Shown here in pieces: positions 1 through 30,382 of a DNA stretch of 64,000 bases. Each line of letters opens with the position of its first letter. The stretch's first letter is position 1. The DNA is taken from the NCBI GenBank assembly GCA_963814395.1, contig CAWFCS010000001.1, forward strand, positions 128,581 through 192,580. The letters run 5' to 3'. The stretch is from an uncultured Acidobacteriota bacterium. Lineage in GTDB: Bacteria; Acidobacteriota; Vicinamibacteria; Vicinamibacterales; UBA2999. The notes under the pieces are model-generated. The model had not been told where the DNA came from. It did no database searches and was given only the letters and a program-made list of their open reading frames with translations. Made by a program: the position numbers and the translations under genes.

Positions 1-115
1 CACCTGACGGCACCGGGGCGGGCGTGCGCCCGCCCCTCGCGCTCCGGTGGTATCGTGGCTCCGCGCGTGCCGCAGGTGAGCGGCTGAGCTTGATCCAGTT
101 TCGTGGACGGTTTAG

Positions 116-1140
116 CTACGCTGCTTGAGCGTGCCGACGCTCGAAGACCGCTGGGCTGACTCTGGCCCAGCGTCGAGTGCCGACGCTGCTGGTTATAGAA
201 CACTTCGATGTAATCGAACAGGTCCATCTTCGCGTCGCCGTAGCTCGCGAACTGGTCCGCCAGCTCGCTCTTGACGGTCGAGAAGAAGCTTTCCATCACA
301 GCGTTGTCCCAGCAGTTGCCGCGGCGGCTCATGCTGCACACGATCCCACGGGCGTCGAGGACGGCTTGGTAGTCCTCGCTCGCGTACGTCGAGCCTTGAT
401 CCGAGTGATGCAGCAACCCGATCGCGGGGCATCGTCGCTTGAGCGCCATCTCGAGCGCCTTGATGGTCAGGTGGCGATCGTTCGCGGCACTCACCGCCCA
501 GCCGACGACGAACCGCGAGAACAGGTCGAGGATCACGGCCAGGTAGAGCTTGCTGCTGGTGCCGATGACGAACTCCGTCGTGTCGCCGACCCAGCGCTGA
601 TTCGGGGCCTCCGCCTTGAACTGGCCGATCGAGGAGGTTGTCGGCGACCGGTTGATCGTGGTCGCTCATTGTCGTGTGCTTGTACCGCCTTCGCACCCGC
701 GCCTTCAGGCCGTCGGCTTGCATCAAGCGCACGACGCGCTTCCGGCTGACCTGCTCGTGGAGCTCGATAAGATCCTCGTGGATGCGCGGACTCCCGTACC
801 GGTGTTTGCTGGCCTCGAAGGACGCGCGGATGAGGACTTGTAAGCGGCGATCGTCGATGCGGTGCGCGGACTCCGACCGACCCCGCCATGCGTAGAACCC
901 GCTCGTCGTGACACGGAGATTGCGACACAGAGCGACGACGGGGAAGGTGGCCTTCTCCAGGGCGATCCACGCAAACTTCACGCGTGGTCCCTCACGAAGA
1001 AGGCCGCGGCTTTTACGAGGATCTCCCGATCCTGCCGGAGCTGCCGATTCTCTTTCCGCAAGCGGACCAACTCCTCGCGCTCGGCAGTGGTCACGCCGGT
1101 CTTGCCCGCCGTGCGATCGGCGCGCGCGTGCTCCACCCAC
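116..1140 (-). pseudogene. IS3-family transposase OrfB (DDE), frameshifted
   Basis: Same as intact copy 10558..11580 except for 1-nt insertions near 162 and 623. The translation diverges after ..DNLLDR. Confidence 0.8.
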
Positions 1141-1322
1141 GCACGGAAGGCCGTTTCGGTCAGGTCCAACTCGCGGGCCACCGCCGCGACCGTCCGACCT
1201 TCATCGAGGACCAACCGCACGGCCCCCGCTTTGAACTCCTCCGTGAACTGTCGCCGTGCCCGTCGCCCCGTCTTGCCTGATTCCATTCTGGCCATCGTAT
1301 CCCCCTCTGGAAAGATGTCCAC
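978..1322 (-). CDS. IS3-family transposase OrfA (HTH)
   Basis: 114 aa, identical to 11418..11762. Has the RRQFTEEFK..VARELDL HTH plus leucine-zipper-like region typical of IS3 OrfA. Confidence 0.85.
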   Translation of the reverse strand: MDIFPEGDTMARMESGKTGRRARRQFTEEFKAGAVRLVLDEGRTVAAVARELDLTETAFRAWVEHARADRTAGKTGVTTAEREELVRLRKENRQLRQDREILVKAAAFFVRDHA

Positions 1323-1340
1323 GAAACTGGATCAAGCTCA

Positions 1341-1571
1341 GCTGGCTGGCTCACGGCGTGGGTGTTTCCGGGACATCTCTTCGGGGCGCCGGTTCTCCCT
1401 AGGGCGAGTCTGGTGCTATCGCCGATCCTAAACGGGGCGCTGATGCACTACTTCGGCGCATGGCGGGCACAGCACCTGCAGGGGAACTCGTTCATCGCGA
1501 CGTTCTGGGGTGGGGCCCTGTTCGCGTTCGGCTTCGCTGTGGTCCGTTTCGTCTTGGTCGTAAATCAGTAA
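1341..1571 (+). pseudogene. C-terminal fragment of small membrane-protein cassette gene, split by IS3 copy 1
   Basis: ..SLVLSPILNGALMHYFGAWR..IATFWGGALFAFGFAVVRF aligns with the C-terminus of 14056..14460. It starts directly at the IS end. Confidence 0.6.
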
Positions 1572-1689
1572 GGTCGAAGCGAGAATTTGGCGTGGGCTCA
1601 TGAGGCCCGAGCTGCGTCGCCAACGGCCGCAGTGCTTGAGGTCCGCTCGGGTGCGCGACGCTCCGGAGGTCACGGCATTGGGGCTCGGT

Positions 1690-1765
1690 GCCTAACAACG
1701 GCTTGCAGCCGGCGGCAGCCCGGGCGATCATGAGGCCGCCGCGGCTGAAGCCGGGGGCGTTAGGC
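1690..1765 (+). repeat. attC site, family A
   Basis: 76 bp, GCCTAAC...GTTAGGC. Arms ..CGGCTTGCAGCCG / GCGGCTGAAGCCG.. pair. Confidence 0.85.
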
Positions 1766-1773
1766 CGATCTGA

Positions 1774-2529: not shown

Positions 2530-2535
<6 letters not shown>
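1774..2535 (+). CDS. hypothetical protein (orphan cassette, 253 aa)
   Basis: Single ORF fills the cassette. Its TAA stop lies inside the R'' heptamer of the next attC. No family recognised. Confidence 0.6.
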
Positions 2536-3225
<690 letters not shown>

Positions 3226-3259
3226 ACGCCGGTCCGTTAGACGGACGAGGAGGTGCCAG

Positions 3260-3703
3260 GTGTCAAGTCAACACTTTCGCACCAAGGTCGACTGGTTCTT
3301 CGTGATGATCTACATGTTCTTAGGCGTTCGCCTCTTCACGCCCGTTGTGACCGCCGTAGTCCAGGGCCGTTCATTCACGCCTGCGGTGGATCTTGTTTCC
3401 GCTTGGCGTCCTCGGGGCGCTGTCACTACTTGGCGGCTAGCACGTACCTACGTTCTGACCGACACGATGCTTCTTGTCAAATCGGGCCCGTTCACGTCGC
3501 GGATCCCGGTCGCGTCAATTTACAAACTTCGAGCCACCCACACGATTGTCGCGTCGCCGGCACTGTCGCTCGACCGCATCGAAGTTCTCGCGAGGCAAGG
3601 GCCCTACACCGTGATTTCGCCGGCCGACAAGCGCGGATTCATTGCCGCGGTTCGCCAACGCGTACCAGCACTCGAGCTCGAAGGGCTTGAAACCGCCGTC
3701 TAA
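3260..3703 (+). CDS. bacterial PH-domain (bPH_4/DUF1200-like) membrane protein
   Basis: N-terminal TM segment. ..YVLTDTMLLVKSGPF..IPVASIYKL..SPALSLDRIEV motif. GGAGG SD upstream. Confidence 0.5.
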   Translation: MSSQHFRTKVDWFFVMIYMFLGVRLFTPVVTAVVQGRSFTPAVDLVSAWRPRGAVTTWRLARTYVLTDTMLLVKSGPFTSRIPVASIYKLRATHTIVASPALSLDRIEVLARQGPYTVISPADKRGFIAAVRQRVPALELEGLETAV

Positions 3704-3778
3704 TCTAACCACGGCTTGCAGCCGACGCCGGCCCGGTGAATCATGAGGGCCGCCGCGGCTGAAGCCGGGGCGTTAGCC
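3703..3778 (+). repeat. attC site, family A
   Basis: 76 bp, ATCTAAC...GTTAGCC. Confidence 0.8.
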
Positions 3779-3824: not shown

Positions 3825-4118
3825 GTGCGCTTCGGGTGGGATGCTCGGAAAAGCGATCGCAATCTTCGGGCGCGGGGCTTCGACTTCGAGTTCGCCACGC
3901 AGGTGTTCGACGGGCCGACCTTGGAGCGCCCAGACACACGTCGCGACTACGGCGAGCGTCGGGTCGTGGCCATTGGCCAGGCCGATGGCATCACCCTGAC
4001 TCTCGTGTACACCGACCGGGCCGAGGCCGGTGCACAGGTCCGTCGCATCATTTCGGCCAGAGTGAGTAGTCGCAGTGAGCGTCAAGCCTACGAGCAAGCA
4101 GTCCAAGGCCGGTCCTAG
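3825..4118 (+). CDS. brnT: BrnT-family toxin (DUF497)
   Basis: MRFGWDARKSDRNLRARGFDF...RRIISARVSSRSERQAYE. Confidence 0.8.
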   Translation: MRFGWDARKSDRNLRARGFDFEFATQVFDGPTLERPDTRRDYGERRVVAIGQADGITLTLVYTDRAEAGAQVRRIISARVSSRSERQAYEQAVQGRS

Positions 4119-4392
4119 CCGCGGCCGCGCCAGCCTCGCCCGGCTGCGGCGGGTCTCTGACGCGACGATTCAACGCACGTCGCCCCGAGAGCTGCGAGGC
4201 CTGCCGGATGATTTCTGGGCTTCGGCGCGGGTGGTCGAGCCCGTGGCGAAACAGCCGATTTCGCTCAGGGTCGACACAGATGTTCTCGACTGGTTCAAGG
4301 CCCAGGGGCCCCGGTATCAGTCACGCATCAACGCGGTCCTGCGGTCGTTCATGACGCAGGCCAGCACCGCTAGCCGCCGAAAGGCGGGCTAA
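4075..4392 (+). CDS. brnA: BrnA-type antitoxin (DUF4415-like)
   Basis: ..ISLRVDTDVLDWFKAQGPRYQSRINAVLRSF. Overlaps the brnT end. Its TAA stop lies in the attC R''. Confidence 0.7.
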   Translation: MSVKPTSKQSKAGPSRGRASLARLRRVSDATIQRTSPRELRGLPDDFWASARVVEPVAKQPISLRVDTDVLDWFKAQGPRYQSRINAVLRSFMTQASTASRRKAG

Positions 4393-4458
4393 CATCCAAA
4401 TGCAGCCGACGCGCCGCGTGTCGCCCAACGGCGCGCGGCTGATTTGGCGTCGTTAGCC
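4387..4458 (+). repeat. attC site, family C
   Basis: 72 bp, GGCTAAC...GTTAGCC. ccaaat/atttgg, cagccg/cggctg and cgcgccg/cggcgcg pair, with two unpaired bases on the 5' arm. Confidence 0.85.
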
Positions 4459-4483
4459 CAATCCCAGCTCGATCGAGAAGAGG

Positions 4484-4648
4484 ATGACACTACGCCACAC
4501 GAAGATCGGGGTGACGGTCGCGACGATGCTTGTGGGTGGCGTTCTGACGACGCTTGTACCGGTTGCTGGCCAGTCCGGTCGGTCACCGGTCAGCGTTGTG
4601 CGTCTTCTCGATCGGCCCATCATTTCGCCGGACTTGGACAAGAGCATC
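4484..4648 (+). pseudogene. duplicated 5' fragment of cassette gene 7116..8183
   Basis: Identical to 7116..7280 (MTLRHTKIG..DLDKSI). Runs into the IS21 end. Confidence 0.8.
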
Positions 4649-4754
4649 TGGGCGCGCCGCTCGGAAAGTAGGCCATTCGCCGCCCAGAAAGTAGGCCACC
4701 TGAGGGCCTGATGGCGGACTTGCGGGATCGGGGAATCCGGCGTCCGCTGAAAGG

Positions 4755-6239
4755 ATGCTCAGGATGGATCAAGTGCATGTGGTCCGGCACAAAGTGCTGG
4801 TCGAAGGGCGGTCGCAGCGGGCGGTGGCGCGGGAGCTGGGACTCTCGCGGTCGACGGTTGGCAAGTACGTCGGCCAGGCAGCGCCGGTCCGGAAGGCCGA
4901 GGCGGGACCGCGGCCACGGCCCGTGTGGGACACGGTCGGCGGGCGCGTGCAGGCGCTGCTCACCGAGTCGGCCCAATGGACCGGCGGCAAGCAGCGGCTG
5001 ACCGCGACGCGGTTGCATGGGCTGGTCGTCGCCGAGGGCCTCCAGGTCGGCGTCACCGTGATCAAGGCGGCGGTGGCGGAGTGGAAGCGCCAGCGGCGCG
5101 AGGTCTTCGTGCCGCTGACGTATCGGCCGGGGGATCTCGCCGAGGTCGACTTCTTCGAGGTGCTGGTCGACGTCGACGGCACGCGGCGAAAAGCGTGGCT
5201 CTTTCTGATGCGCTTGATGTACTCGGGCCGCGACTTCGCCTGGATCTACGAGCGCCAGGATCAGATCAGTTTCCTCGATGGGCACGTCCGCGCGTTCGCA
5301 CACTTCGACGGCGTGCCGGCGCGGGTCGCCTATGACAATCTGCGGGCCGCCGTCGTGCGGATTCTGGTCGGCGGCGGGCGCACGCTGACGGCGCGGTTCA
5401 GTGCGATGGCGTCGCACTATCTGCTGGAGGCGTGCTTGTGCGGCCCGGGCGAGGGCCATGACAAAGGCGGCGTCGAGAGCCGCGGGAAAGCGGTGCGCCA
5501 GCAGGTGCTGGTGCCGATTCCGAGCGGGCCGACGCTGGCCGGCATCAATGCGACGTTGCTGGCACAGATGGATGCGCGCCTCGCCACGGCGCGCGATGCG
5601 ACGCGGCCAGACGATCGGGGCGCGCTTCGCGGAGGAGCAGCGACTCTTTCGGGACGCCCCGATCCCCTTCGTGGCCGAAGCCACGACGCTCGCCACGGTG
5701 ACTCCACGCGCGCTGATTCGACTCGACGGCGCGGGGTACTCGGTGTGGACGCGCTGGGCCGGCCTCGACCTCGTGGTCCGGACGGGCGCCACGACCGTCA
5801 CCATCGTCGGGCGCGACGGCACCTGCGTGTCCCATCCGCGGCGGCGGTTCGGCCAGCGGTCGATTGACTACCGGCATTACTGGCCGAGCTGGCGCGCAAG
5901 CCGCAGGCGGTGCGGCAGGTGCTGCCGGATCTGCTGCGCGACCTCGGCGCCCCGTTTCCGGCGATCTGGGATCAGCTGCACGGCGCGCATGGGCCGCGCG
6001 AGGCCGCGCGGCTCTTCGCCAAGGTGCTGGGCCAGCTCGACACGCACGGCGCCGCGGTCGTCGTGCCGGCGCTGACCCGCGCGCTCGCGACCGGCACGCC
6101 GCTGCTCTTGGCGCTGACGCCGGTGCCCGATCGCGACGGCCTCGCCGCCGACGCCGTGCCCGCGCGGCTGCGTGACCTCGAGATCCCGAGCGGCTGTGCC
6201 GCCGACTACGACGGCTGGCTCGTCGCGGTGGGCGCATGA
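4755..6239 (+). pseudogene. istA: IS21-family transposase IstA, two frameshifts
   Basis: Three consecutive frames carry HTH..DDE..C-terminal IstA sequence. Shifts lie near 5604 and 5880. Confidence 0.8.
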
Positions 6240-7021
6240 GCGCCCCCGCGATCGTCCGGGATCTCGTCGTCGCCCATACGCGGGCACTGAAGCTGCCCGG
6301 CGTGGCCCGGACGTTTGAAGGCCTCGCGCGGCAAGCCCGCGACAGCCACTGGCCGCACGAAGACTACCTGCACGAGGTCCTGAGCGCCGAGCAGGCGTCG
6401 CGGCACGAGTCGGTGATCCGGCAGCGGCTCCGCGAGGCGCGCTTCCCGGAGGTGAAAACGCTCGACACCTTCGACTTTGCGGCGGCCGACGGGATCAATC
6501 CGACGCAGATCCACACCCTCGCGCGCGGCGAATGGGTGACCGCGCCGGAGAATCTGATCCTGGCCGGGCCGATCGGGACCGGCAAGACGCACCTGGCCAT
6601 CGCGCTCGGCGTGGAAGCGACCCGCCAGAAACGGCGCGTCCTCTTCACGCGGGCCGCTGACCTGGTCCGCCAGCTCGTGGAAGCCCGCGATGCCCGCGAG
6701 CTGACGCGTCTGCAGCAACGACTGCTCCGCGTCGACGTGCTGATCGTCGACGAGCTGGGCTTCGTGCCCTTCGATCGCGTCGGCGGCGAGCTGCTCTTTA
6801 ATCTGCTGACCGACCGCTACGAGCGGCGCGCCACCGTCGTCACCACCAATCTCGCCTTCGCGGAATGGGTCACCGTCTTCGCCGGCGACGAGAAGCTGAC
6901 CACGGCCCTGCTCGACCGCTTGGCGCATCACGCCACCGTGCTCACCACCAAGGGGAAGAGCTATCGCATGCGCACCCGGAGGGGCGCCGACGGACGGGCC
7001 TGCCCCGTCAGAATCACGTAG
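6236..7021 (+). CDS. istB: IS21-family helper ATPase IstB
   Basis: Walker A GPIGTGKTHLA and LIVDELG Walker B. Confidence 0.9.
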   Translation: MSAPAIVRDLVVAHTRALKLPGVARTFEGLARQARDSHWPHEDYLHEVLSAEQASRHESVIRQRLREARFPEVKTLDTFDFAAADGINPTQIHTLARGEWVTAPENLILAGPIGTGKTHLAIALGVEATRQKRRVLFTRAADLVRQLVEARDARELTRLQQRLLRVDVLIVDELGFVPFDRVGGELLFNLLTDRYERRATVVTTNLAFAEWVTVFAGDEKLTTALLDRLAHHATVLTTKGKSYRMRTRRGADGRACPVRIT

Positions 7022-7115
7022 AATCAACCGCCCTCAGGTGGCCTACTTTCTGAGCGGCGAATGGCCTACTTTCCGAGCGGCGCGCCCGCCCAATCCCAGC
7101 TCGATCGAGAAGAGG

Positions 7116-8183
7116 ATGACACTACGCCACACGAAGATCGGGGTGACGGTCGCGACGATGCTTGTGGGTGGCGTTCTGACGACGCTTGTACCGGTTGCTG
7201 GCCAGTCCGGTCGGTCACCGGTCAGCGTTGTGCGTCTTCTCGATCGGCCCATCATTTCGCCGGACTTGGACAAGAGCATCGGTCCCAACATCCAGGGGCC
7301 ATCGCTCATCCGCGTGCCAGACTGGGCGCCGGGACGCCTCGGCAAGTACTACCAGTATTTCGCCGACCACAAGGGACGCTATATCCGTCTCGCATATGCT
7401 GACGACCTTCTGGGCCCCTGGCACATTCACGCGCCAGGCAGCCTTCAGCTCGGAGGTTCGTTTCTGCTGACCGAGCCGCCACAGGGGCCGGCTGACGAGT
7501 TGGCCAAGCTTCGCGCCGAAGGGCGCCGGGCAAACTTTTCGCACGACGCCTTCACCGAAGCCACGACGCCGCATATCGCCTCACCTGATGTCCACGTCGA
7601 CGAGGCCAATCGACGAATCATCATGTATTACCACGGCCTCAATGGGCTTGGGGAGCAGGTGACGCGGGCCGCCACTTCTGCCGACGGCATTCGCTTTGCG
7701 GCAAGGCCTGAGATCCTCGGGAAGACCTATTTTCGAACGTTTACTCACGGCGACTATATCTACGCTATGGCCATGCGTGGCCAGTTCTACCGATCAAAGA
7801 ACGCGCTGAGCGGTTTCGAGGAAGGGCCTTTGCTGTTCAACCCCAACATGCGTCATGCCGCCTTTCTCAAGCGCGGGAGCACACTGCTTGTGTTCTGGAC
7901 GCAGGTTGGGACGGCTCCGGAAGCGATTCAGCTGAGCACGATCGATCTGTCAGGCGATTGGACGACGTGGAAGGACACCGCCCCGATTGAGGTCCTCCGA
8001 CCAGAGCGAGTGTGGGAGGGATCGGACGCGCCGCGGCGACCGTCGCTCCGCAGTACCGCCTACGGCCATGTCAATCAGCTACGTGACCCGGCGGTCTTCG
8101 AGGAGAACGGACGGATGTTCCTGCTCTACGCGGTGGCCGGTGAGAGCGGCATCGGAATCGCCGAGTTGAAGTTCGACAACTGA
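7116..8183 (+). CDS. secreted beta-propeller-like protein (GH43/GH117-like fold suspected)
   Basis: Signal peptide MTLRHTKIGVTVATMLVGGVLTTLVPVAG. Start chosen downstream of the IS end with GAGAAGAGGA upstream. Family call is weak. Confidence 0.45.
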   Translation: MTLRHTKIGVTVATMLVGGVLTTLVPVAGQSGRSPVSVVRLLDRPIISPDLDKSIGPNIQGPSLIRVPDWAPGRLGKYYQYFADHKGRYIRLAYADDLLGPWHIHAPGSLQLGGSFLLTEPPQGPADELAKLRAEGRRANFSHDAFTEATTPHIASPDVHVDEANRRIIMYYHGLNGLGEQVTRAATSADGIRFAARPEILGKTYFRTFTHGDYIYAMAMRGQFYRSKNALSGFEEGPLLFNPNMRHAAFLKRGSTLLVFWTQVGTAPEAIQLSTIDLSGDWTTWKDTAPIEVLRPERVWEGSDAPRRPSLRSTAYGHVNQLRDPAVFEENGRMFLLYAVAGESGIGIAELKFDN

Positions 8184-8957: not shown

Positions 8958-8963
8958 GATCGC

Positions 8964-22334: not shown

Positions 22335-22351
22335 ACGCCGTTCCGTTAGAC
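22253..22351 (+). repeat. attC site, family B
   Basis: 99 bp, GGCTAAC...GTTAGAC. Confidence 0.85.
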
Positions 22352-22426
22352 CGACAATCGAACGACCGATCCGATCCAAGACAGCGAGGCGTTCCGGCTG
22401 GGCCGTGGTAGCCTCAGCGCATCGCG

Positions 22427-22678
22427 ATGAACGAGTTCGAGTGAGACCCCCGCAAGGCCGCGAGCAACCTGAAGAAGCACGGCGTCTCGGACCCCGCGGC
22501 CAGGATCTTCGACGATCCCGATCACTCAGGCGACGAGCGTCGTAAGATCATCATAGGGTACTCGCGGCGCCCTCGGCTGTTGGTCGTGGGCTTTACGCAA
22601 CGGGTCGGCCGCGTTCGCATCATCACCGCGCGACGGGCGTCGCGGGCTGAGACACAGCGTCATGAAGAGCACACGTAA
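22427..22678 (+). pseudogene. brnT: BrnT-family toxin remnant (TGA at conserved Trp, internal deletion)
   Basis: MNEFE-TGA-DPRKAASNLKKHGVS..RVRIITARRASRAE. TGA 22442..22444 replaces the W of the FEWD motif. Shorter than its paralogs. Confidence 0.65.
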
Positions 22679-22904
22679 GGCAAAGGCACCGGCCCGCGAT
22701 CTCCGCGCGGAGTACGAGGTCGACTACAGCAAGAGCCAGAAGAACCGGTTCGCAACTGGCGGCGCGCCCGCTGTGGCCGTCGTACTCGACCCCGACGTGG
22801 CTCGCGTCTTCGGCTCTTCGGCGAAGGTCAACCGTCTCCTCCGGTCGGTCATCAAGGCCGTGCCCGGCGCCGCAGACGGCGACAGAAAACGCAAAGCGGG
22901 CTAA
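22662..22904 (+). CDS. BrnT-associated antitoxin
   Basis: ..RAEYEVDYSKSQKNRFA..VAVVLDPDVARVFGSSAKVNRLLRSV resembles 2918..3225. TAA stop in the attC R''. Confidence 0.55.
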   Translation: MKSTRKAKAPARDLRAEYEVDYSKSQKNRFATGGAPAVAVVLDPDVARVFGSSAKVNRLLRSVIKAVPGAADGDRKRKAG

Positions 22905-22970
22905 CCACCAAATGCAGTCGACGCGCCGGACGTCGCGTGTCGGCGCGTGGCTGATTCGGCATCGTTAGGT
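22899..22970 (+). repeat. attC site, family C
   Basis: 72 bp, GGCTAAC...GTTAGGT. Confidence 0.85.
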
Positions 22971-23009
22971 CGACAACGAAGGACGCTGGCGCGCGAACCA
23001 GCGTCTGGC

Positions 23010-23015
23010 TATAAT
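23010..23015 (+). promoter_or_regulatory. candidate -10 box (TATAAT), 9 nt before ATG
   Basis: Consensus hexamer. No SD before 23025. Confidence 0.45.
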
Positions 23016-23024
23016 CTGGCCAGA

Positions 23025-23348
23025 ATGCGGTTCGAGATCGCACTGGCACCGGGCGCAGTCGCGGCGCTCAAGGCCCTGCCGGCCCGGACGCGCACGACCG
23101 TCCGCGAGGCCCTCGAACGGCACCTGCGGTACGAGCCGACGAAGACCAGCAAGAGCCGCATCAAGCGCCTCCGGGGGCTCTTGCGCCCGCAGTATCGGCT
23201 GCGCGTCGATGAGATCAGGGTGTTCTATGACGTCACTGCGAGCACAGTCGAAATTCTTGCCATCATCACGAAAGCCGAGGCGCAAGCCTGGCTCGACGAC
23301 GCCGGTGCGCCCGACTCGGAGCGTGGCTCTGGCGGAGGCGAAGGATGA
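23025..23348 (+). CDS. RelE/ParE-family toxin
   Basis: ..LRPQYRLRVDEIRVFYDVTASTVEILAIITK. Confidence 0.65.
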   Translation: MRFEIALAPGAVAALKALPARTRTTVREALERHLRYEPTKTSKSRIKRLRGLLRPQYRLRVDEIRVFYDVTASTVEILAIITKAEAQAWLDDAGAPDSERGSGGGEG

Positions 23349-23640
23349 TCTGTCCCGCTACCTCCGCCTGGCGGCCACCGAAGAGATCGTGATCACCCGT
23401 CACGGACGACCGGCCGGCGTCATTATCGGCTTCGAGAACGAAGACGCGTGGTTCGACTACAGACTCGAGAACCATCCAGAATTCCTGGATCGAATCGCGG
23501 CGGCGCGGGCGGCCCTCGCCGCCGGGCAGGGCATCCGGCTTGAAGAACTCGAAACGCGACCTAACAAGGCGTTGCAGCCGACGAGCCGCGCCGGGCGCGT
23601 GGGCAACCCGACGCGCCGTGGTCGCGCGGCTCGCGGCTGA
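23323..23640 (+). CDS. Phd/YefM-family antitoxin with attC-encoded tail
   Basis: VALAEAKDDLSRYLRLAATEEIVITRHGRPAGVIIG. Start is tentative. The tail NKALQPTSRA..RAARG is read from the attC. Confidence 0.55.
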   Translation: MALAEAKDDLSRYLRLAATEEIVITRHGRPAGVIIGFENEDAWFDYRLENHPEFLDRIAAARAALAAGQGIRLEELETRPNKALQPTSRAGRVGNPTRRGRAARG

Positions 23641-23656
23641 ACGCCGGGCGTTATCA
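23559..23656 (+). repeat. attC site, family B
   Basis: 98 bp, ACCTAAC...GTTATCA (degenerate R'). Confidence 0.75.
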
Positions 23657-23657
23657 G

Positions 23658-23901: not shown

Positions 23902-23979
23902 GGCTAACCTTCAGATGGAGCCGACGCCCCTCGGCGGCTGGCGCATCGACCGCGGCGCGGCTCATCTGAATCGTTAGCC
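23902..23979 (+). repeat. attC site, family D
   Basis: 78 bp, GGCTAAC...GTTAGCC. Arms CTTCAGATGGAGCCGACG / GCGGCTCATCTGAAT. Confidence 0.8.
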
Positions 23980-24032: not shown

Positions 24033-24287
24033 ATGACGGTCACTACACGGATCGTTCGAATCGGCAACTCGCGGGGCATCCGCGTGCCGAAGGTGTTGCT
24101 CGAGCAGGCGGCCCTGTCGGATGAAGTCGAGATCCAGGCCGAACCGGGCCGGCTCGTGGTCAGCGGAGTGAAACGGCCACGAGCGGGCTGGGCGGTGGCA
24201 GCCCGCGCCATGCATGAACGGACCGATGACATCGAACTGGATGCACCGACAACGAGCCGGTTCGATCGATCGGGCTGGAAGTGGTGA
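24033..24287 (+). CDS. mazE: MazE/AbrB-family antitoxin
   Basis: ..IVRIGNSRGIRVPKVLLEQA SpoVT/AbrB motif. Confidence 0.8.
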   Translation: MTVTTRIVRIGNSRGIRVPKVLLEQAALSDEVEIQAEPGRLVVSGVKRPRAGWAVAARAMHERTDDIELDAPTTSRFDRSGWKW

Positions 24288-24604
24288 TGCGTCGCGGCGA
24301 CGTGTTGTTGGTCAAGCTCGATCCGACCTTGGGTAGTGAGATCAAGAAGACCAGGCCGTGCGTGGTCGTGTCGCCGGACGAACTGAACGAGCACTTGCGC
24401 ACCGCGATTGTCGCTCCGATGACGACCAAGGGGCGGCCGTACCCGTGGCGAATTCAGTGCCGCTTTCAAGGCAAGACTGGCTACGTCGTGCTCGACCAGC
24501 TTCGGACCATCGACCAAGAACGTGCGGCATCGCGGCTCGGGCGGTTGTCCGCAGACACACTTGATCAAGTACTCGAACGGCTGCAAGAGATGTTCGCTGA
24601 GTGA
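24281..24604 (+). CDS. mazF: MazF/PemK-family toxin
   Basis: RRGDVLLVKLDPTLGSEIKKTRPCVVVS..VAPMTTKGRPYPW..VVLDQLRTID. Confidence 0.85.
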   Translation: MVMRRGDVLLVKLDPTLGSEIKKTRPCVVVSPDELNEHLRTAIVAPMTTKGRPYPWRIQCRFQGKTGYVVLDQLRTIDQERAASRLGRLSADTLDQVLERLQEMFAE

Positions 24605-24611: not shown

Positions 24612-24640
24612 GGCTAACATCCGAAGCGGCGTCGTTAGCC
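24612..24640 (+). repeat. truncated attC remnant (family C ends only)
   Basis: 29 bp ggctaacatccgaa/gcggcgtcgttagcc. The ends align to family C; the L boxes and centre are missing. Confidence 0.55.
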
Positions 24641-24647
24641 TGAGCCC

Positions 24648-25283
24648 ATGAACATCTCGCGCGCGATCCTGACCCTCTGGATGTTCGTGGCGACCACGCC
24701 GGCGTGGGGCCAAGTGGGGCCACCCTCGAGTGCGAACCAGCCCACAGATGACTCGAAGGGCTACTTCCAGGCAGGGCTCCTGGTCGCCTTCCATCCAGAG
24801 GGCACGCCGTATCCTCGCATCACGCCCACCGTTCACGGCGCGGTGCCCGGTGCACTCATCGGCGGCGGCATACGCCTCTCTCCTGCGCTCGCACTGGAGG
24901 TCGAGACGGTCCTGAGGCGCTCCCTCGTGACGCCCTTGGTGCTACTGGGCTTTTCGTCAAACAGGAATTTTGACGGAGCGGTTCGCGACCTAGTGGTCGG
25001 TGCAAACCTGAGGTTGAGGCCGAGCCGTCACCTTGAGCTTCACGTCGGTGGCGGGGTCGCTGTCAGCCGGTACTCCGGCCTCGCGCCACCCATTCAGGAA
25101 GTCACGCGAAAGCAGGGCACGCTTGGTGCGGGCATTGCCAAGGCTTGGCGCGTCGGCGCCAAGACGGCAGTCGTGCCCATGGCCAGCTACGAGTGGATCG
25201 ACAGACCAGATGAGCTGTCGTCCGTCGCCACTCTCGGCGTGAGTAGCCATGTGTTCCGCATTGGCGTGATGATCCGTCACTAG
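24648..25283 (+). CDS. outer-membrane beta-barrel-like protein
   Basis: Signal peptide ..TTPAWGQ. Alternating hydrophobic beta-strand pattern. Weak call. Confidence 0.4.
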   Translation: MNISRAILTLWMFVATTPAWGQVGPPSSANQPTDDSKGYFQAGLLVAFHPEGTPYPRITPTVHGAVPGALIGGGIRLSPALALEVETVLRRSLVTPLVLLGFSSNRNFDGAVRDLVVGANLRLRPSRHLELHVGGGVAVSRYSGLAPPIQEVTRKQGTLGAGIAKAWRVGAKTAVVPMASYEWIDRPDELSSVATLGVSSHVFRIGVMIRH

Positions 25284-25391: not shown

Positions 25392-25466
25392 GGCCAACAT
25401 CGGCTTGCCGCCGACAGCGGCCCAGTGGATCATGAGGCCGCTGCGGCTGAGGCCGCAACGTTAGCC
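25392..25466 (+). repeat. attC site, family A
   Basis: 75 bp, GGCCAAC...GTTAGCC. Confidence 0.75.
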
Positions 25467-25525: not shown

Positions 25526-25807
25526 ATGTGGGCACTCCTGGAGCATTGCCGGATGGACCGGCAGCTGGCCAAGGCCCCACGCGAAGTGCTCAAGCGCTAC
25601 GAGAAGTGGAAAGACATCGCGCGGTTGTCGGGGCCTCCGGGCATCCGGCTGATCGCTGGATTCCATGACGAGGCCTTGGCGGGAAAATGGAAGGGGTCGC
25701 GGTCATCTCGCCTGGGTGACCAATGGCGCGTCATCTACCGCGTGGAGCCGGAACACCTCACCTGCTACATCGAATCGGTGACGCCCCATGACTACCGGAG
25801 GCCGTGA
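25526..25807 (+). CDS. RelE/HigB-like toxin
   Basis: ..FHDEALAGKWKGSRSSRLGDQWRVIYRVEPEHLTCYIESVTPHDY. Confidence 0.65.
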   Translation: MWALLEHCRMDRQLAKAPREVLKRYEKWKDIARLSGPPGIRLIAGFHDEALAGKWKGSRSSRLGDQWRVIYRVEPEHLTCYIESVTPHDYRRP

Positions 25808-25808
25808 C

Positions 25809-26126
25809 ATGAAGAACTATCGTGCGGCGCGCAAGCGCGTAACCGTGTCGGTCGGAGAGTCGGTGCGAATCATCCGTGAGCTGCAGGGGCTGAGCCAGAA
25901 CGAGCTCGCCCAGCGCACGGGTATCTCGCAGGCGACGATCTCCGGCATCGAGAACGACCGGGTCAAGCTCGGCGTCGAACGCGCAAAGGCCCTCGCGCAG
26001 GCGCTCAGGTGCCACCCCGGCGTGCTGGTGTTCCCCGGCTGGGTTGTGCCTACTGAGGCGGCGGTGAAACAACCGGTTGCAGCGGACGGCGCGAGCGCCG
26101 CCGCTGAACCGGCAACGTTAGGCTGA
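25809..26126 (+). CDS. XRE-family HTH antitoxin (HigA-like)
   Basis: ..IRELQGLSQNELAQRTGISQATISGIENDR. The 3' end reads through the attC. Confidence 0.7.
   Translation: MKNYRAARKRVTVSVGESVRIIRELQGLSQNELAQRTGISQATISGIENDRVKLGVERAKALAQALRCHPGVLVFPGWVVPTEAAVKQPVAADGASAAAEPATLG
26064..26123 (+). repeat. attC site, family E
   Basis: 60 bp, GTGAAAC...GTTAGGC. Arms AACCGGTTGCAGCGGACGG / CCGCTGAACCGG. Confidence 0.7.
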
Positions 26127-26181: not shown

Positions 26182-27024
26182 ATGGTCTTCGCTTGCGGGG
26201 CCGTTCTTCTTGCGCAAGATCGGTACGTCAGCTCAGACGGAGCGTCGATTCGTTACGTCGTCCAGGGGCGAGGCGAATCGGTCGTGCTGGTCCATGGGTA
26301 CACTGGAAGCGTAGAAGACCATTGGGTTACGCCTGGAGTTATGTCGAGGTTCGCGCAGGACTACCAAGTGGTGGCGCTGGACCTGCGCGGACATGGGAAA
26401 GGCGCCACACCGTATGAGGCCAGCGCCTATGCACGCATGGAACAGGACGTCGTGCGCGTGCTCGACGACCTGAAGATCGCTCGCGCACACATTGTCGGCT
26501 ACTCCCTCGGAGGAGTCTTCGTCAACAAGCTGCTCGTGACCAATCCTGACCGCGTCCACACCGCGGTGCTTGTAGCTTCGCCAGGGCGCCGAAGTTGGAG
26601 CGCGAAGGACGACGAGGCTGCGCAGCATGCCGCTCGGGAGCTGATGAGCGATGCACCCTACCGATCGTTGGCGCTACTCCTCGCCCCGACCGATCGCTCC
26701 CGACCATCAGAAGAGGCCGTGCGATCGGCTTCGGCACGCCTGGCCGCCCGCAACGACCCGAAGGCTCATGCGGCACTAGCGTTGGCGCGCAAGTATCAGG
26801 TCGTAACGGTCGAGGAGTTGGCTCGCACCAAGACGCCATCTCTCGCCGTAGTCGGCACAGCCGATCCTGTAGTGAACAGCGTTCGCGATATGAAGAAGGG
26901 CTGGCCGGGTGTGGTCGTGGAAGAAATCGGGGGCGCCACGCATGCGGGCGAGCGAAGCAGTCTGACGCAGCCGTCCACCTGGAACCGCGTCGCGGCGTTC
27001 TTTCGTGAGCATCCTACGTTCTAG
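26182..27024 (+). CDS. alpha/beta hydrolase
   Basis: VLVHGYTGS.. and nucleophile elbow GYSLGG. Confidence 0.75.
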   Translation: MVFACGAVLLAQDRYVSSDGASIRYVVQGRGESVVLVHGYTGSVEDHWVTPGVMSRFAQDYQVVALDLRGHGKGATPYEASAYARMEQDVVRVLDDLKIARAHIVGYSLGGVFVNKLLVTNPDRVHTAVLVASPGRRSWSAKDDEAAQHAARELMSDAPYRSLALLLAPTDRSRPSEEAVRSASARLAARNDPKAHAALALARKYQVVTVEELARTKTPSLAVVGTADPVVNSVRDMKKGWPGVVVEEIGGATHAGERSSLTQPSTWNRVAAFFREHPTF

Positions 27025-27034: not shown

Positions 27035-27105
27035 GTATGACGTCCGAATGCAGCCGACGCGCCACGTGATGCCAACGGCGCGCGGCTGATTCGGCGTCGT
27101 TAGAC
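27035..27105 (+). repeat. attC site, family C
   Basis: 71 bp, GTATGAC...GTTAGAC (degenerate R''). Confidence 0.7.
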
Positions 27106-27173: not shown

Positions 27174-27944
27174 TTGTGTGTGTCCTCGCGGTTGCAGTAC
27201 CTGAGCGCTCAGCCGCCCGCCCCTGTTCTCCACGACCTCAAGGCCATGCCCGAACTGGAGGTCAACGCGAACATCAAGATCAAGAAGGTGATGGGCGAGA
27301 TCGGCACCTTCATGCTCGGCAGGTTCCGTGCGGGGTTCAAGTCCGCTCCTCATCACCATACCTACGAACAAATCAACATCGGCCTGACGGGCATGTACAC
27401 GTTGCCGGTGGCAGGCACTCGGCATCCGGTGTCGGCCATGCGCGGCGTCGTGATCCCGCCAGACGTCGAGCACAACAACGACGTGCCTGGGGACGCCGGT
27501 GACCCAGAATTGATCGAGTTTCAGTCCACGCGCCGACTCGACTTCCCGCCCGAGCGCCAGCAGGTCACTCTTCCTGCCTGGCCTACGGCGTTGCCGGTGC
27601 CCCAGGGGCGCCAGGTGGGGTTTGACTTCGGCACATCGTCCTCGGGCTGGCAGACCATCATCAAGGGTGTTCGCATGCAGGCGCGCACCGGCAGCACGAC
27701 CGCGATCGCGTCGTGGGAGCTTCTGCCAACGGCGCAAGACTCCGTCGACCTCCGACTCTTGCTGCCTGGGGCTGAGCGGTTCGTATATGTGGTTGAAGGC
27801 GCCGTTGAGGCAACCGTCGACACAAGGCGCCTCGTCGTGAGCCCTGGCGCCTTGCTCGTGAGCGCGTCAGGCGGGCCGCCTCTTCGCGTCAGCAGGCAGG
27901 GCAGCCAACGAGCGCTGCTGCTCGTATTCGAGGCGCGTCGCTGA
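27174..27944 (+). CDS. cupin-domain protein (two cupin-like halves)
   Basis: ..SAPHHHTYEQINIGLTG cupin motif. A possible signal peptide lies in another frame upstream (27140..). Confidence 0.45.
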   Translation: MCVSSRLQYLSAQPPAPVLHDLKAMPELEVNANIKIKKVMGEIGTFMLGRFRAGFKSAPHHHTYEQINIGLTGMYTLPVAGTRHPVSAMRGVVIPPDVEHNNDVPGDAGDPELIEFQSTRRLDFPPERQQVTLPAWPTALPVPQGRQVGFDFGTSSSGWQTIIKGVRMQARTGSTTAIASWELLPTAQDSVDLRLLLPGAERFVYVVEGAVEATVDTRRLVVSPGALLVSASGGPPLRVSRQGSQRALLLVFEARR

Positions 27945-27965: not shown

Positions 27966-28037
27966 GTCTAACATCCAAATGCAGCCGACGCGCCGCGTGA
28001 TGCCCGACGGCGCGCGGCTGATGCGGTGCCGTTGGGC
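27966..28037 (+). repeat. attC site, family C
   Basis: 72 bp, GTCTAAC...GTTGGGC. Confidence 0.85.
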
Positions 28038-28074
28038 AGACCGCTCACGCACCACCAGGGAAGAGGACCGAAGA

Positions 28075-28590
28075 ATGAACCTGTTGACGACAAGACTTGC
28101 GCTCACGGTCATTCTGTCGCTCGGCTCCTTGGGCAGCACGTCGCACGCGCAGGCCGACGACCCTGTTGCCAAGCAGTTCACTGGGATGTGGAGGCTGGCC
28201 TCTCGAACGCAGCGTCTCGCTGATGGCACGACGCGACAGCATCCGATCAGCGTCGGGTACATCATCTACACCGATTCTGGGCACATGTGCTACGTGGCCA
28301 TGAATCCTAGTCGGGCCAAGTGGAAGTCCGAGACTGCGCCGACCGCCGAAGAAGCCATCTCCGGGATCACGGGCCTGGGTGCATACTGCGCGACTGTCGA
28401 GGTGTATTCGAAAGAGGGATTTGTCGTCCATCAGGCGGAGATTGACAAGATCCCGAACCTGGTTGATCGGGCCAAGAAACGGTGGTTTACATTTCAGGGG
28501 CCGAACCGCGTCGTGTTGCGGGTCGATACCCCGGAACTAATCTTGCCGGTCGTCGAGGACACGCTGACCTGGGATCGCGTACGGCAGTGA
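28075..28590 (+). CDS. lipocalin-like domain protein, secreted
   Basis: Signal peptide MNLLTTRLALTVILSLGSLGSTSHA. ..FTGMWRLAS.. start typical of the lipocalin-like family. Confidence 0.55.
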   Translation: MNLLTTRLALTVILSLGSLGSTSHAQADDPVAKQFTGMWRLASRTQRLADGTTRQHPISVGYIIYTDSGHMCYVAMNPSRAKWKSETAPTAEEAISGITGLGAYCATVEVYSKEGFVVHQAEIDKIPNLVDRAKKRWFTFQGPNRVVLRVDTPELILPVVEDTLTWDRVRQ

Positions 28591-28680
28591 TCTGAAGCAG
28601 ACGATCCCGCTCGCTCTACGCGAGGCTCATGGAAGTCCGACGTCGACCGAGCGGACAGCTGGACATCGGCGCACACGGCC

Positions 28681-28752
28681 GTCTAACACGCGCTGCACTA
28701 GACGGCCGCCGGTGCAATCATGGGCGGCCGCTGGTGAACGCTGTCGTTGATA
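28681..28752 (+). repeat. divergent attC-like site
   Basis: 72 bp, GTCTAAC...GTTGATA. Arms acgcgctgcactagacggccgcc / ggcggccgctggtgaacgctgtc pair imperfectly. Confidence 0.6.
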
Positions 28753-28816
28753 TGGCCGATTCCCGAGGTTGCGGTCGGTCGATCGAGAGCTACGAGGAGG
28801 GACCGCCGTGCCTGGA

Positions 28817-30304
28817 ATGTCTCGACGTGAAGCGCTCGCCCTTCTGGCAGCAGGTGCCGTCGCGCCCCATGGGGCCGCCGTGTCGGCACAGACTGCGACC
28901 GACGCTCATTGGTTGAGTATGGCGGACATCGGCCGCCTTATCAGGGCGCGAACGCTGTCATCCACGGCGTTGACCGAGCAGATGCTCGATCGCATCAAGC
29001 GCCTCGACCCAGCCCTCGAGAGTTACGCCACCCTGATGGCCGACGCCGCCCTGGACGCCGCGCGCGCGGCCGACCGCGAGATGAGTGCTGGCACCGACCG
29101 CGGACCGCTGCACGGCGTGCCGATTGCCGTCAAGGACCTCTGTTACACCCGCGGGGTTCGAACGATGGGCGGGACGTTCGTGAATGCCACGTTCGTTCCG
29201 AACGAAGACGCTACCGTCGTTGCCAAGCTGCGCGATGCCGGCGCGGTCCTGCTCGGCAAGCTGAATCTCACGGAAGGCGCGATGGTGGGGTATCACCCCG
29301 AGAGGGGCATTCCGCGAAACCCGTGGGACACCAGTCGCTGGCCGGGCCATTCGTCGAGCGGATCGGGGGTGGCGCTCGCCGCTGGCCTGTGCTTTGGCGC
29401 CATCGGCACCGACACCGGCGGTTCAATCCGCTATCCCTCGTCTGCCAACGGCGTGGTCGGACTGAAGCCCACCTATGGACGCGTAAGCCGCCACGGCGTG
29501 ATGGGGTTGTCCGCAACACTTGATCATGTCGGTCCGATGGCCCGAACCGTGCGGGACGTCGCCACCATGTACGACGCGATTGCCGGGCACGATCCGAAGG
29601 ACGCCACGTCGCTCGCGAGCCCACCGACCAGCGCGACCGCCCAGATCGAGCGGTCCATCAGTGGCCTGCGTATCGGCATCGATCGTGACTACGCGCTACG
29701 AGGTATCGATCCCGGCCAGGCTGCGTCCATCGAGGAGGCGCTCAAGGTACTCGCCGGCCTCGGCGCACGCATCGTCGACGTAACCATGCCAGATCGCTCG
29801 GCAATGCGCGACACGTGGCTATCAATCTGCGCCGCTGAAGCACTCGTGTTTCACAAAGAGAATTACCCGGCGCGCGCCAACGACTACGGTGTCTACTTCC
29901 GCGAGTTCCTGGCCATGGGCGCCACGGTGACTCCGGAGCAGGCCGCTACGGCACGGGCGTGGCGAACCCAGTTCAGCGCCCGTGTCACGGCGGTTCTGGA
30001 GTCCGTCGACGCCATGGCCTGCCCGGCCGGCGGCGCCCCGGCGTGGCCGGTCACGCGCGCTCAACTACTCGGCGGCGACCTCGTTCCGGCGATGGCCAAG
30101 GCATTGCCGCGCAGCTCCGAATTCACGATGCCGATGAATCTCGCCGGCACGCCGGCCATCTGCCTGCCGTCGGGTTTCTCGGCCGAAGGGCTTCCGTACA
30201 GCATCCAGCTTGCCGGCCGCCGTCTCAGTGAGCCAACGCTCTGCCGTCTCGCGTACGCCTACGAGCAAGCCACGCGGTGGCATACTCGGCACCCGGCGAT
30301 CTGA
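28817..30304 (+). CDS. amidase (amidase-signature family), Tat/Sec signal
   Basis: MSRREALALLAAGA.. signal. GHSSSGSG and GTDTGGSIR signature. Confidence 0.8.
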   Translation: MSRREALALLAAGAVAPHGAAVSAQTATDAHWLSMADIGRLIRARTLSSTALTEQMLDRIKRLDPALESYATLMADAALDAARAADREMSAGTDRGPLHGVPIAVKDLCYTRGVRTMGGTFVNATFVPNEDATVVAKLRDAGAVLLGKLNLTEGAMVGYHPERGIPRNPWDTSRWPGHSSSGSGVALAAGLCFGAIGTDTGGSIRYPSSANGVVGLKPTYGRVSRHGVMGLSATLDHVGPMARTVRDVATMYDAIAGHDPKDATSLASPPTSATAQIERSISGLRIGIDRDYALRGIDPGQAASIEEALKVLAGLGARIVDVTMPDRSAMRDTWLSICAAEALVFHKENYPARANDYGVYFREFLAMGATVTPEQAATARAWRTQFSARVTAVLESVDAMACPAGGAPAWPVTRAQLLGGDLVPAMAKALPRSSEFTMPMNLAGTPAICLPSGFSAEGLPYSIQLAGRRLSEPTLCRLAYAYEQATRWHTRHPAI

Positions 30305-30313
30305 CGTGCGCCG

Positions 30314-30382
30314 GCCCAACCTGCGGTTGCCGCCGGCGTCGGCCGGTGCAATCCTGAGGCCGGGCACAGCCTGGCGTTCAAG
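30314..30382 (+). repeat. degenerate attC-like site (last of array)
   Basis: 69 bp, GCCCAAC...GTTCAAG. The interior resembles family A (..GCGGTTGCCGCCGG..ATCCTGAGGCCGGG..). Confidence 0.45.

Follow-up and report, generated by a model that had tools for sequence, protein, structure and literature searches.

A large attC array of an Acidobacteriota genome, probably the integrase-distal part of a sedentary chromosomal integron

Sedentary chromosomal integrons, such as the Vibrio cholerae superintegron and those of Xanthomonas and Pseudomonas, comprise long co-oriented arrays of gene cassettes and their attC recombination sites, contain toxin-antitoxin (TA) modules besides orphan genes, and occupy a locus common to related genomes. 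More than 19 attC sites are reportedly the criterion that Cury et al. set for this class in 2016. The first 30,382 positions of a 64-kb stretch of DNA from an uncultured bacterium (contig CAWFCS010000001.1; the whole stretch is called the window below) share these features, with 26-27 attC sites, ordinary chromosomal flanks and a locus common to relatives. This array most likely represents the integrase-distal part of a sedentary chromosomal integron of Acidobacteriota, the order being probably Vicinamibacterales. It differs from the above integrons in its acidobacterial host, in less uniform attC sites and in the presence of six insertion sequences (IS) within 30 kb. Furthermore, the window is devoid of an integrase gene (intI), and in the related locus L131 (loci from public genomes carry L numbers here) intI is co-oriented with the cassettes and not divergent.

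The 'inverted-integrase' chromosomal integrons, e.g. of Treponema denticola, share their layout with L131 and several acidobacterial loci, in which intI and cassettes are transcribed in one direction; other loci have a divergent intI. Within the 64 kb in view the array is formally a cluster of attC sites lacking integron integrase (CALIN); it departs from a CALIN in that an integrase is recorded for apparently the same contig and in that the window edge cuts the array. Integrons have been listed for Acidobacteriota and Gemmatimonadota (PMC8618304), and Ghaly et al. 2021 (PMC8352920) derived a taxon-specific covariance model from acidobacterial chromosomal attC sites; these share phylum and kind of element with the window array. 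An earlier reading of the window, made from its letters without database searches (the sequence-only reading), held that such an array may be undescribed, which is too strong in view of both studies. No literature was found on a Vicinamibacterales array of such size or on its locus linked to the lactate permease gene lctP. The array adds an example to a known kind of element and no new mechanism. Its interest is that of a well-resolved large chromosomal integron outside Proteobacteria, in an abundant, little-cultured soil phylum.

Recognition and structure of the attC sites

Direct-repeat analysis places families of 60-100-nt repeats within the first 30 kb and nowhere else in the window. The covariance model R1, built from 15 of these repeats and run unfiltered over the whole window, yielded 26 plus-strand matches (E <= 2e-4) spanning 1685-28761, 11 of them outside the seed alignment. 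A 27th site is weak (R1 match 30309-30382, 11 bits, E 2.4). Minus-strand matches of R1 are only mirror images of the plus-strand palindromes and 30-60 bits weaker. A pattern of the 5' half-site gave 23 matches, all on the plus strand and all within the array, with a chance expectation of 0.92. The sequence-only reading had counted 27 palindromes of 29-99 bp in one orientation, roughly 0.27-1.5 kb apart when IS elements are excluded. These counts agree with ours: 27 sites are found, 26 of them statistically supported, all R1-significant sites lie on the plus strand, lengths range from 30 to 99 nt over the 27 sites, and intervals without IS measure 246-1557 bp. Wider gaps of 3.7, 2.2, 4.6 and 1.5 kb each hold IS elements. 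All gaps between neighbours are below 4 kb, except for the one of 4.6 kb with two IS elements, and 26 sites fall within 28 kb. No significant R1 match is present in the 33.6 kb of the window right of 30.4 kb (best E = 0.13), so that within the window the scatter in both orientations, which the earlier reading had named as contrary evidence, is not seen between 30.4 and 64 kb.

R'' ends in AAC in 23 of the 27 sites and R' starts with GTT in 26, as read from the boxes. Contrary to the heptamer formula proposed earlier, GGCTAAC is not strictly RYYYAAC, its position 2 being G. A strict regular expression RYYYAAC...GTTRRRY matched just 5 sites, as GGCTAAC is the R'' box of many sites and the cores differ.

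The consensus fold consists of a 7-bp outer R''/R' stem (GCCTAAC / GTTAGGC), an asymmetric unpaired spacer, an inner L stem (TTGCAGCCGACG / CGCGGCTGAA) with two unpaired bases (columns 21 and 28), and a variable loop. In the 15-site seed alignment 13 of 26 pairs show compensatory changes; over the 24 best sites double (compensatory) changes occur in 15 of 26 pairs, and 0 of 500 shuffles reached the covariation score. Over the same 24 sites 94.8% of the cells are paired, vs 27-45% with partners slid, and the R stem is 83-96% paired. For the bottom strands of five window sites, folded as single-stranded DNA, the z-scores range from -3.1 to -5.9. Four of these sites share the shape of attC_aadA1 (R100), i.e. 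an R stem, an asymmetric internal loop and two 1-base bulges 6 bp apart, and the fifth (27966-28037) forms an L stem with one bulge, the R stem being absent in the minimum-energy fold.

Reciprocally, R1 was run on In2 of plasmid R100 and on the class 1 integron of pFBAOT6 (20 kb). It matched attC_aadA1 of R100 (36.7 bits, E 5e-7) and attC_aadA2 of pFBAOT6 (32.5 bits, E 5e-6), both abutting the 3' end of the aadA genes in correct orientation, with no further significant match in the 20 kb of class 1 integron context. The sequence-only reading had noted a likeness of the inner boxes to class 1 attC. Window and class 1 sites have in common the box order R''-L''...L'-R' and its spacing, the GTTAG core and the two bulged bases 6 bp apart; the L boxes are nearly alike (GCAGCCGAC/GCGGCTGA in the window vs AAGCCGAC/GCGGCTT in aadA1/aadA2). 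In contrast, the R-box-proximal bulge, the only point in which the folds differ, is C in window sites and G in attC_aadA1 (bottom strand), loops are longer in the window (total 60-99 nt vs 60 for class 1 attC), and the window cassettes possess no resistance genes, unlike class 1 cassettes. A gathering search of the window with Rfam, which is without an attC family, gave 0 matches. By structure, covariation, co-orientation, clustering, cassette content and the reciprocal test, the repeats are attC sites.

The sites fall into two length classes: 18 of them measure 60-78 nt, and six measure 97-99 nt. The six long sites (3144, 12633, 13294, 20066, 22253, 23559) all belong to two-gene cassettes of TA type; in at least four of the six the second open reading frame (ORF) enters attC, which makes those sites partly coding. 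The sites are given below with box-to-box coordinates, strand and length, followed by the start and score of the R1 match.

attC 1, 1690-1765 (+), 76 nt, GCCTAAC...GTTAGGC; R1 from 1685, 71.9 bits, E 6e-15
attC 2, 2530-2606 (+), 77 nt; R1 from 2525, 80.5 bits; bottom-strand fold -29.4 kcal/mol, z -5.6
attC 3, 3144-3242 (+), 99 nt; R1 from 3139, 53.4 bits
attC 4, 3703-3778 (+), 76 nt, ATCTAAC...GTTAGCC; R1 from 3698, 70.9 bits
attC 5, the best site, 4387-4458 (+), 72 nt; R1 from 4382, 89.4 bits
attC 6, not a seed site, 8193-8270 (+), 78 nt; R1 from 8188, 60.8 bits
attC 7, 8853-8926 (+), 74 nt; R1 from 8848, 83.7 bits
attC 8, 9559-9630 (+), 72 nt; R1 from 9554, 78.1 bits
attC 9, 11845-11908 (+), 64 nt; R1 from 11840, 68.3 bits
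attC 10, 12633-12731 (+), 99 nt, R'' GCCTAGC; R1 from 12628, 48.1 bits
attC 11, 13294-13392 (+), 99 nt; R1 from 13289, 53.9 bits
attC 12, 13945-14022 (+), 78 nt; R1 from 13940, 64.8 bits
attC 13, remnant beside an IS21 end, 18663-18758 (+); R1 from 18663, 29.6 bits, E 9e-5
attC 14, 19358-19431 (+), 74 nt, R'' GCCCAGC; R1 from 19353, 80.0 bits
attC 15, 20066-20164 (+), 99 nt, R' mutated to GTCAGGC; R1 from 20061, 51.5 bits
attC 16, 21673-21743 (+), 71 nt; R1 from 21668, 78.1 bits
attC 17, 22253-22351 (+), 99 nt; R1 from 22248, 55.5 bits
attC 18, 22899-22970 (+), 72 nt; R1 from 22894, 75.3 bits
attC 19, 23559-23656 (+), 98 nt, R' GTTATCA; R1 from 23554, 46.4 bits
attC 20, 23902-23979 (+), 78 nt; R1 from 23897, 56.5 bits
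attC 21, remnant of 30 nt, 24612-24641 (+), GGCTAAC-ATCCGAAGCGGCGTC-GTTAGCC; R1 from 24607, 28.5 bits, E 1.6e-4
attC 22, 25392-25466 (+), 75 nt; R1 from 25387, 70.9 bits
attC 23, 26064-26123 (+), 60 nt, R'' GTGAAAC; R1 from 26059, 65 bits
attC 24, 27035-27105 (+), 71 nt, R'' GTATGAC; R1 from 27030, 76.2 bits
attC 25, 27966-28037 (+), 72 nt; R1 from 27961, 83.5 bits
attC 26, 28681-28756 (+), 76 nt, degenerate R' GTTGATA; R1 from 28676, 33.9 bits, E 8e-6
attC 27, decayed terminal site, 30314-30382 (+), GCCCAAC...GTTCAAG; 5' half matching the half-site pattern with 3 mismatches

attC 27 marks the distal end of the array.

Cassettes and cassette-boundary footprints

The exact pattern of the conserved attC boxes, scanned over public genomes, matched at least 118 stretches. 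About 70 of the matches listed are titled as Acidobacteriota lineages, many of them Vicinamibacterales; further lineages among the matches listed are Chloroflexota, Proteobacteria (Lysobacterales and Luteimonas included), Planctomycetota, Nitrospirota and others. This cross-phylum distribution fits the report in PMC8352920 that attC sites group according to environment and not phylogeny. Loci scanned with R1 contain co-oriented arrays in all but one instance, L069, which has one opposite-strand site. More than 20 of the listed loci possess IntI1-like sequences (42-75% identity, several fragmentary), located at the start of the array where R1 was run, and three integrases that were checked score 385-448 bits with TIGR02249 (cut-off 265). 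intI is divergent in L030, L065, L062, L093, L089 and L033, as well as in L013 among the acidobacterial loci, and co-oriented with the cassettes in L032, L017, L086, L111, L091, L076 and L052.

Two cassettes of the array recur elsewhere with boundaries at the presumed crossover. Cassette 16 is 83-93% identical in nucleotides to the first, intI-proximal cassette of L131 (92.8% to L131 20105-19759). The homology starts at the GT(T/C)AGGC core, and the sequences upstream are unrelated; the junction reads GAATACTT followed by GTTAGGCATTCGCGAAC in L131 and, after attC 15 of the window, CGCCGTTCC followed by GTCAGGCATTCGCGAAC. Cassette 11 is 85.6% identical over 12725-13390 to the solitary cassette of L137, the homology beginning at GT(T/C)AGCC and ending at the next GTTAG, both of them R' cores; versions of this cassette are also found in L134 and L054. 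In these two independent cases the shared homology starts or ends at the GTT core, as G|TT recombination would have it. The same cassettes at different array positions, bounded at the crossover, are what excision and re-insertion by an integrase would be expected to produce, and the evidence is consistent with cassette movement between related genomes.

attC 9 is 98% identical to a site in the Phycisphaeraceae metagenome-assembled genome (MAG) L070 (window 11849-11906). Altogether, the attC at 11849-11906, 3704-3774, 4385-4456 and 19358-19433 are 93-98% identical to sites in L070, L105, L009 and L017, L105 being a Myxococcota MAG and L009 and L017 Acidobacteriota MAGs. Since sites so similar occur in MAGs of other lineages, a shared soil cassette pool would fit. 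Sites of the attC class that clinical aadA cassettes carry are widely distributed among Acidobacteriota and further soil MAGs, a point relevant to the origin of mobile resistance cassettes. A tentative proposal, which may well prove wrong, is that Vicinamibacterales-like bacteria maintain a lineage-conserved integron anchored at lctP, with co-oriented intI and here at least 27 cassettes, and that soil Acidobacteriota form an unrecognised major reservoir, and possible source, of the aadA-class attC currently attributed to Xanthomonadales.

The cassettes are, from left to right (plus strand; each numbered cassette closed by the attC of that number; Pfam in brackets where a Pfam family supports the assignment):

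Cassette 1, partial, window start to 1765; closed by attC 1, split by an IS3 element
Cassette 2, 253-aa orphan ORF 1774-2535, its stop being the TAA of R''; 63 metagenomic homologues, no Pfam match
Cassette 3, BrnT toxin 2659-2943 (Pfam BrnT_toxin 1e-26) and 78-aa ORF 2989-3225 entering attC
Cassette 4, bPH_4 protein 3260-3703, bacterial PH domain (Pfam)
Cassette 5, TA pair of BrnT 3825-4118 and BrnA 4075-4392 (Pfam)
Cassette 6, 355-aa orphan ORF 7116-8183; holds the IS21 element at 4649-7088
Cassette 7, DUF4160 8307-8588 and DUF2442 within 8446-8910 (Pfam)
Cassette 8, DUF2442-containing ORF 8956-9564 (Pfam)
Cassette 9, CAAX-protease gene 9642-10529, truncated by IS3 copy 2
Cassette 10, PIN_3 11929-12384 and HicB/CopG-like protein 12387-12599 (Pfam)
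Cassette 11, DUF4160 12778-13020 and DUF2442 12998-13375
Cassette 12, 94-aa ORF and Imm53-like protein 13608-14030 (Pfam Imm53)
Cassette 13, 149-aa ORF 14011-14460 and two IS elements
Cassette 14, orphan ORFs
Cassette 15, BrnT 19493-19915 and a downstream ORF (Pfam)
Cassette 16, DUF6883 21094-21369 and DUF4926 21429-21665
Cassette 17, 66-aa ORF and ParE-like toxin 21993-22334 (Pfam)
Cassette 18, 80-aa orphan ORF 22662-22904, stop in R''; 22326-22886 88% identical in nucleotides to L093
Cassette 19, ParE / Phd-type pair 22947-23348 and 23209-23640 (Pfam); 79.5% nucleotide identity to L009
Cassette 20, the smallest, 78-aa ORF 23658-23894
Genes before attC 21, MazE 24033-24287 and MazF 24281-24604 (Pfam PemK_toxin 7.5e-31)
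Cassette 22, 211-aa orphan ORF 24648-25283
Cassette 23, RelE/YafQ-like protein 25526-25807 and HTH_3 protein 25788-26126 ending in R' (Pfam)
Cassette 24, alpha/beta hydrolase 26182-27024 (Pfam)
Cassette 25, cupin protein 27174-27944 (Pfam)
Cassette 26, lipocalin-like protein, ORF end 28590
Amidase gene 28769-30304, preceding attC 27

All Pfam-supported cassette genes lie on the plus strand, and many cassette ORFs end at the TAA of the R'' box or extend into attC, as the sequence-only reading had described for its compact plus-strand ORFs with stops inside the repeat. Its description of the content as TA modules and orphan small proteins likewise agrees with the BrnTA, ParE/Phd, MazEF and RelE-like pairs and about eight orphan ORFs. 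The tally comprises three cassettes of BrnT type, three of DUF4160/DUF2442 type and two of ParE type (one with Phd), besides the PIN with HicB/CopG-like, MazEF, and RelE/YafQ-like with HTH cassettes; the others encode DUF6883/DUF4926, bacterial PH-domain, Imm53-like, CAAX protease, hydrolase, cupin, lipocalin-like and amidase proteins. The approximately eleven TA cassettes probably stabilise the array. Third-position GC is about 0.69-0.81 in cassette ORFs vs 0.83-0.97 in flanking genes. PADLOC returned no defence-system match for ten orphan or little-annotated cassette proteins, and the cassettes of the array include no resistance genes.

Integrase, host locus and integron type

Ordinary chromosomal genes occupy the right half of the window and encode a lactate permease, an amidohydrolase, glyoxalases, a beta-lactamase-fold protein, YchF, two-component systems, a sigma-54 activator and an FtsX/MacB-type permease. 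The lactate permease gene provides the anchor for comparison:

L-lactate permease gene (lctP), 34098-35812 (-), Pfam Lactate_perm; conserved chromosomal anchor in related genomes

Its homologues are 85-97% identical, and those that are named belong to Vicinamibacterales or Acidobacteriota, in agreement with the Acidobacteria-like host guessed earlier. Cassettes or attC sites are located downstream of lctP in four relatives, L131, L134, L137 and L054 (lctP 86-91% identical in nucleotides). L131 is a 1.83-Mb contig, 88% identical in the lctP region and syntenic over window 34-45 kb, with the order lctP, small co-oriented cassette genes, two attC (85 and 66.5 bits), and then intI. Its cassettes are oriented as in the window, and intI lies on the cassettes' strand at the far end of the array; the 200 C-terminal residues of this integrase score 253 bits with TIGR02249 vs 94 bits with the best Xer model. 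L134 (about 90%) possesses one attC after the gene adjoining lctP, in the 1.3 kb before the contig end, and L137 (86%) a single cassette with one attC. In L054 (17-2891 of a 2.9-kb contig, lctP 91%) cassettes and attC are co-oriented with lctP.

As the sequence-only reading had stated, a tyrosine recombinase is lacking from the window: tblastn over the 64 kb with IntI1 (query 100% identical to WP_000845048) and two acidobacterial IntI found none at E <= 1e-3, and up to E <= 10 the matches were due to chance. A lenient match (E = 0.05) at 38501-38689 falls in an ORF that is HepT/DUF86-like by motif reading, not a recombinase. The attI junction of L131 type gave 0 matches in the window with up to 3 mismatches. 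The array continues leftward, since the window opens inside a cassette split by IS3, and attI and the cassette promoter (Pc) would lie left of position 1. A protein-collection search yielded P0188, a protein of 324 aa that is 82% identical to the L131 integrase fragment. It is recorded, in NCBI and ENA, on one contig of 258,010 bp, as are the window proteins P0001 and P0064. P0188 scores 443 bits with TIGR02249 (cut-off 265), shares 55% identity with IntI1 across 313 aligned residues, interrupted by a single gap of one residue, and retains the catalytic R, K, HxxR, H and Y positions besides the IntI-specific segment LPDGLRRKYPRAPYEWAWQWVF. This, though indirect, argues well for an apparently intact integron integrase gene on the source contig beyond the window, most likely left of the array, as judged from synteny with L131 alone.

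According to established integron biology, each cassette would comprise a promoter-less gene or a TA pair followed by its attC. The bottom (minus) strand of attC would fold into a hairpin of R-box stem, unpaired central spacer, L-box stem with two extrahelical bases and variable loop, which an integron integrase would recognise and cleave at the AAC complementing the top-strand G|TT. Recombination of attC x attC would then release the cassette as a circle, and attI x attC would re-insert it beside the integrase gene; the cassettes would be expressed from Pc. The integrase would be P0188, encoded farther left on the 258-kb contig and, by analogy with L131, co-oriented with the cassettes ('inverted intI' layout). 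The bottom strand of attC is on the template of the leading strand in 25 of 30 sedentary integrons (PMC5371416); the plus-strand GC skew of the window, weakly positive, hints that this is apparently the case here.

Several points weigh against a sedentary integron of which the window holds the distal part. The attC sites differ among themselves (mean pairwise identity 67%, range 46-91%), more so than those of the classic Vibrio sedentary integrons. Integrase, attI and Pc are all missing from the window, and P0188 is placed by a contig record that matches in size (258,010 bp) and sources and gives no coordinates. The cassettes of L054 are oriented, relative to lctP, opposite to those of the window, L131 and L134, so that this locus is either an inverted array or a chimeric short contig. 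With several damaged sites and six IS elements, furthermore, parts of the array may no longer recombine.

The strongest competitor, though an unlikely one, is a CALIN, i.e. an attC cluster separated from, or never linked to, intI, whose cassettes would be mobilised in trans, if at all. CALINs are common (PMC8618304), and the 64 kb without an integrase, the heavy IS invasion, which can break arrays, and the small integrase-less remnants at the same locus in L137 (one attC) and L134 (one attC before the contig end) would suit one. However, the records place P0188, which appears to be an intact IntI, on a contig of the same size and sources, the L131 integrase sits at that array end which is cut by the window edge, and the array goes on leftward from a window start inside a cassette. 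The sequence-only reading had left the choice between the distal part of a very large chromosomal integron and a CALIN; P0188 and the position of intI at the far end of the L131 array tip the evidence to the former.

A mobile integron or transposon-borne array of recent horizontal arrival is very improbable. Mobile integrons share the heterogeneity of attC (67% mean identity, two length classes), the 93-98% identity of individual sites to those of other phyla could be read in the same way, and IS elements are many. In contrast, 27 cassettes are far above the size of mobile arrays, which rarely exceed eight (PMC5371416), Tn402/Tn7-type transposition genes were not found among the window genes scanned with Pfam, four related genomes have cassettes or attC downstream of lctP, and TA pairs and orphan ORFs dominate in place of resistance genes.

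Palindromes of repetitive extragenic (REP/BIME) or miniature transposable element (MITE) type, merely resembling attC and unrelated to integron recombination, would be GC-rich, imperfect and intergenic as well, but this explanation is hardly credible for 26 sites in one orientation with none in the adjoining 33.6 kb, with two bulges and an asymmetric spacer conserved and covarying, detected by a model that also finds the attC of aadA1 and aadA2, forming co-oriented arrays elsewhere that begin beside TIGR02249 integrases, and with shared-cassette homology that begins or ends at the GTT crossover.

Insertion sequences, decay and flanking genes

Six IS elements interrupt cassettes within the 30 kb of the integron array:

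IS3-family copy 1, 85-1340 (-), orfA 978-1295, orfB about 193-1140, terminal inverted repeats TGAGCTTGATCCAGTTTCGTGGAC
IS21-family element, first, 4649-7088 (+), istA 4755-5867, istB 6236-7021 (Pfam rve, IstB_IS21), terminal inverted repeats
IS3-family copy 2, 10527-11780 (-) (Pfam rve, HTH_21, HTH_Tnp_1), 3-bp target duplication GAA
IS110-family element, 14470-16010 (-), boundaries approximate (Pfam DEDD_Tnp_IS110, Transposase_20), 89% nucleotide identity to L114
IS21-family element, second, 16050-18600 (-), boundaries approximate, IstB_IS21 (1e-49) in ORF 16250-18526, terminal repeats seen
IS5/IS4-family element, 20197-21080 (+), transposase 20205-21074 (Pfam DDE_Tnp_1, DUF4096)

The array is partly decayed and IS-invaded, with about six damaged sites. 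In attC 13 L' and R' (GTTGGGC) are intact and the R''/L'' half is degenerate; a search with the half-site pattern found no displaced 5' half near the IS110/IS21 block. attC 21 keeps its R boxes and spacer and has lost L''-loop-L'. GTC replaces GTT in attC 15, AGC or GAC replaces AAC in attC 10, 14 and 24, and the R' boxes of attC 26 and 27 are degenerate.

The IS5/IS4 element interrupts the 5' leader of cassette 16 at a CTAG, with inverted repeats and a duplicated CTAG compared with the uninterrupted L131 copy. The IS110 transposase is probably a pseudogene or affected by a sequencing error, because it is split over two overlapping frames (14475-15242 and 14894-15850). Some IS110/IS1111 elements target attC sites. 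A perfect direct repeat of 193 bp (4456-4648 = 7088-7280), made up of the end of attC 5 and the start of the cassette 6 ORF, borders the first IS21 element. Target duplications of the IS21 family measure 4-8 bp, far below 193 bp; an artefact of assembly or an unusual rearrangement may account for this duplication.

Between the array and lctP a further group of genes is present:

Array-lctP block, 30422-34056 (+), GDSL lipase, deaminase, RibD_C, glyoxalase fragment and split SfLAP (Pfam)

The block lacks homology in the relatives L131, L134 and L137, and between 30.4 and 34.1 kb no plus-strand R1 match occurs even at E <= 10. Its genes may be old cassettes without their sites or a separate insertion, and it is outside the demonstrable array. 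lctP itself is broken up into two overlapping ORFs of 257 and 329 aa; among its close homologues most are unbroken (561 aa), and in L131 the gene is split, too (9511-11023; 162 and 340 aa). Outside the array, two overlapping small ORFs at 38104-38737 resemble an MNT/HepT (nucleotidyltransferase/DUF86) TA pair, as judged by the motifs DVDLLV and RDRLIHAYFG.

IS3 copy 1, which interrupts the first partial cassette, is a 98-100% repeat of 10527-11780. Its flanks, GGC and GCT, do not match, unlike the clean GAA duplication of copy 2. The Logan contig L127 is 100% identical to window 10497-11810, which includes IS3 copy 2; a piece identical to this segment is present in Logan contigs of run ERR14374161. 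The exact OrfA protein of this IS3 element (loci L121-L130) is present on 17 public contigs, among them one of the Acidobacteriota MAG GCA_031376505.1, whose IS3 copy shows 91% nucleotide identity.

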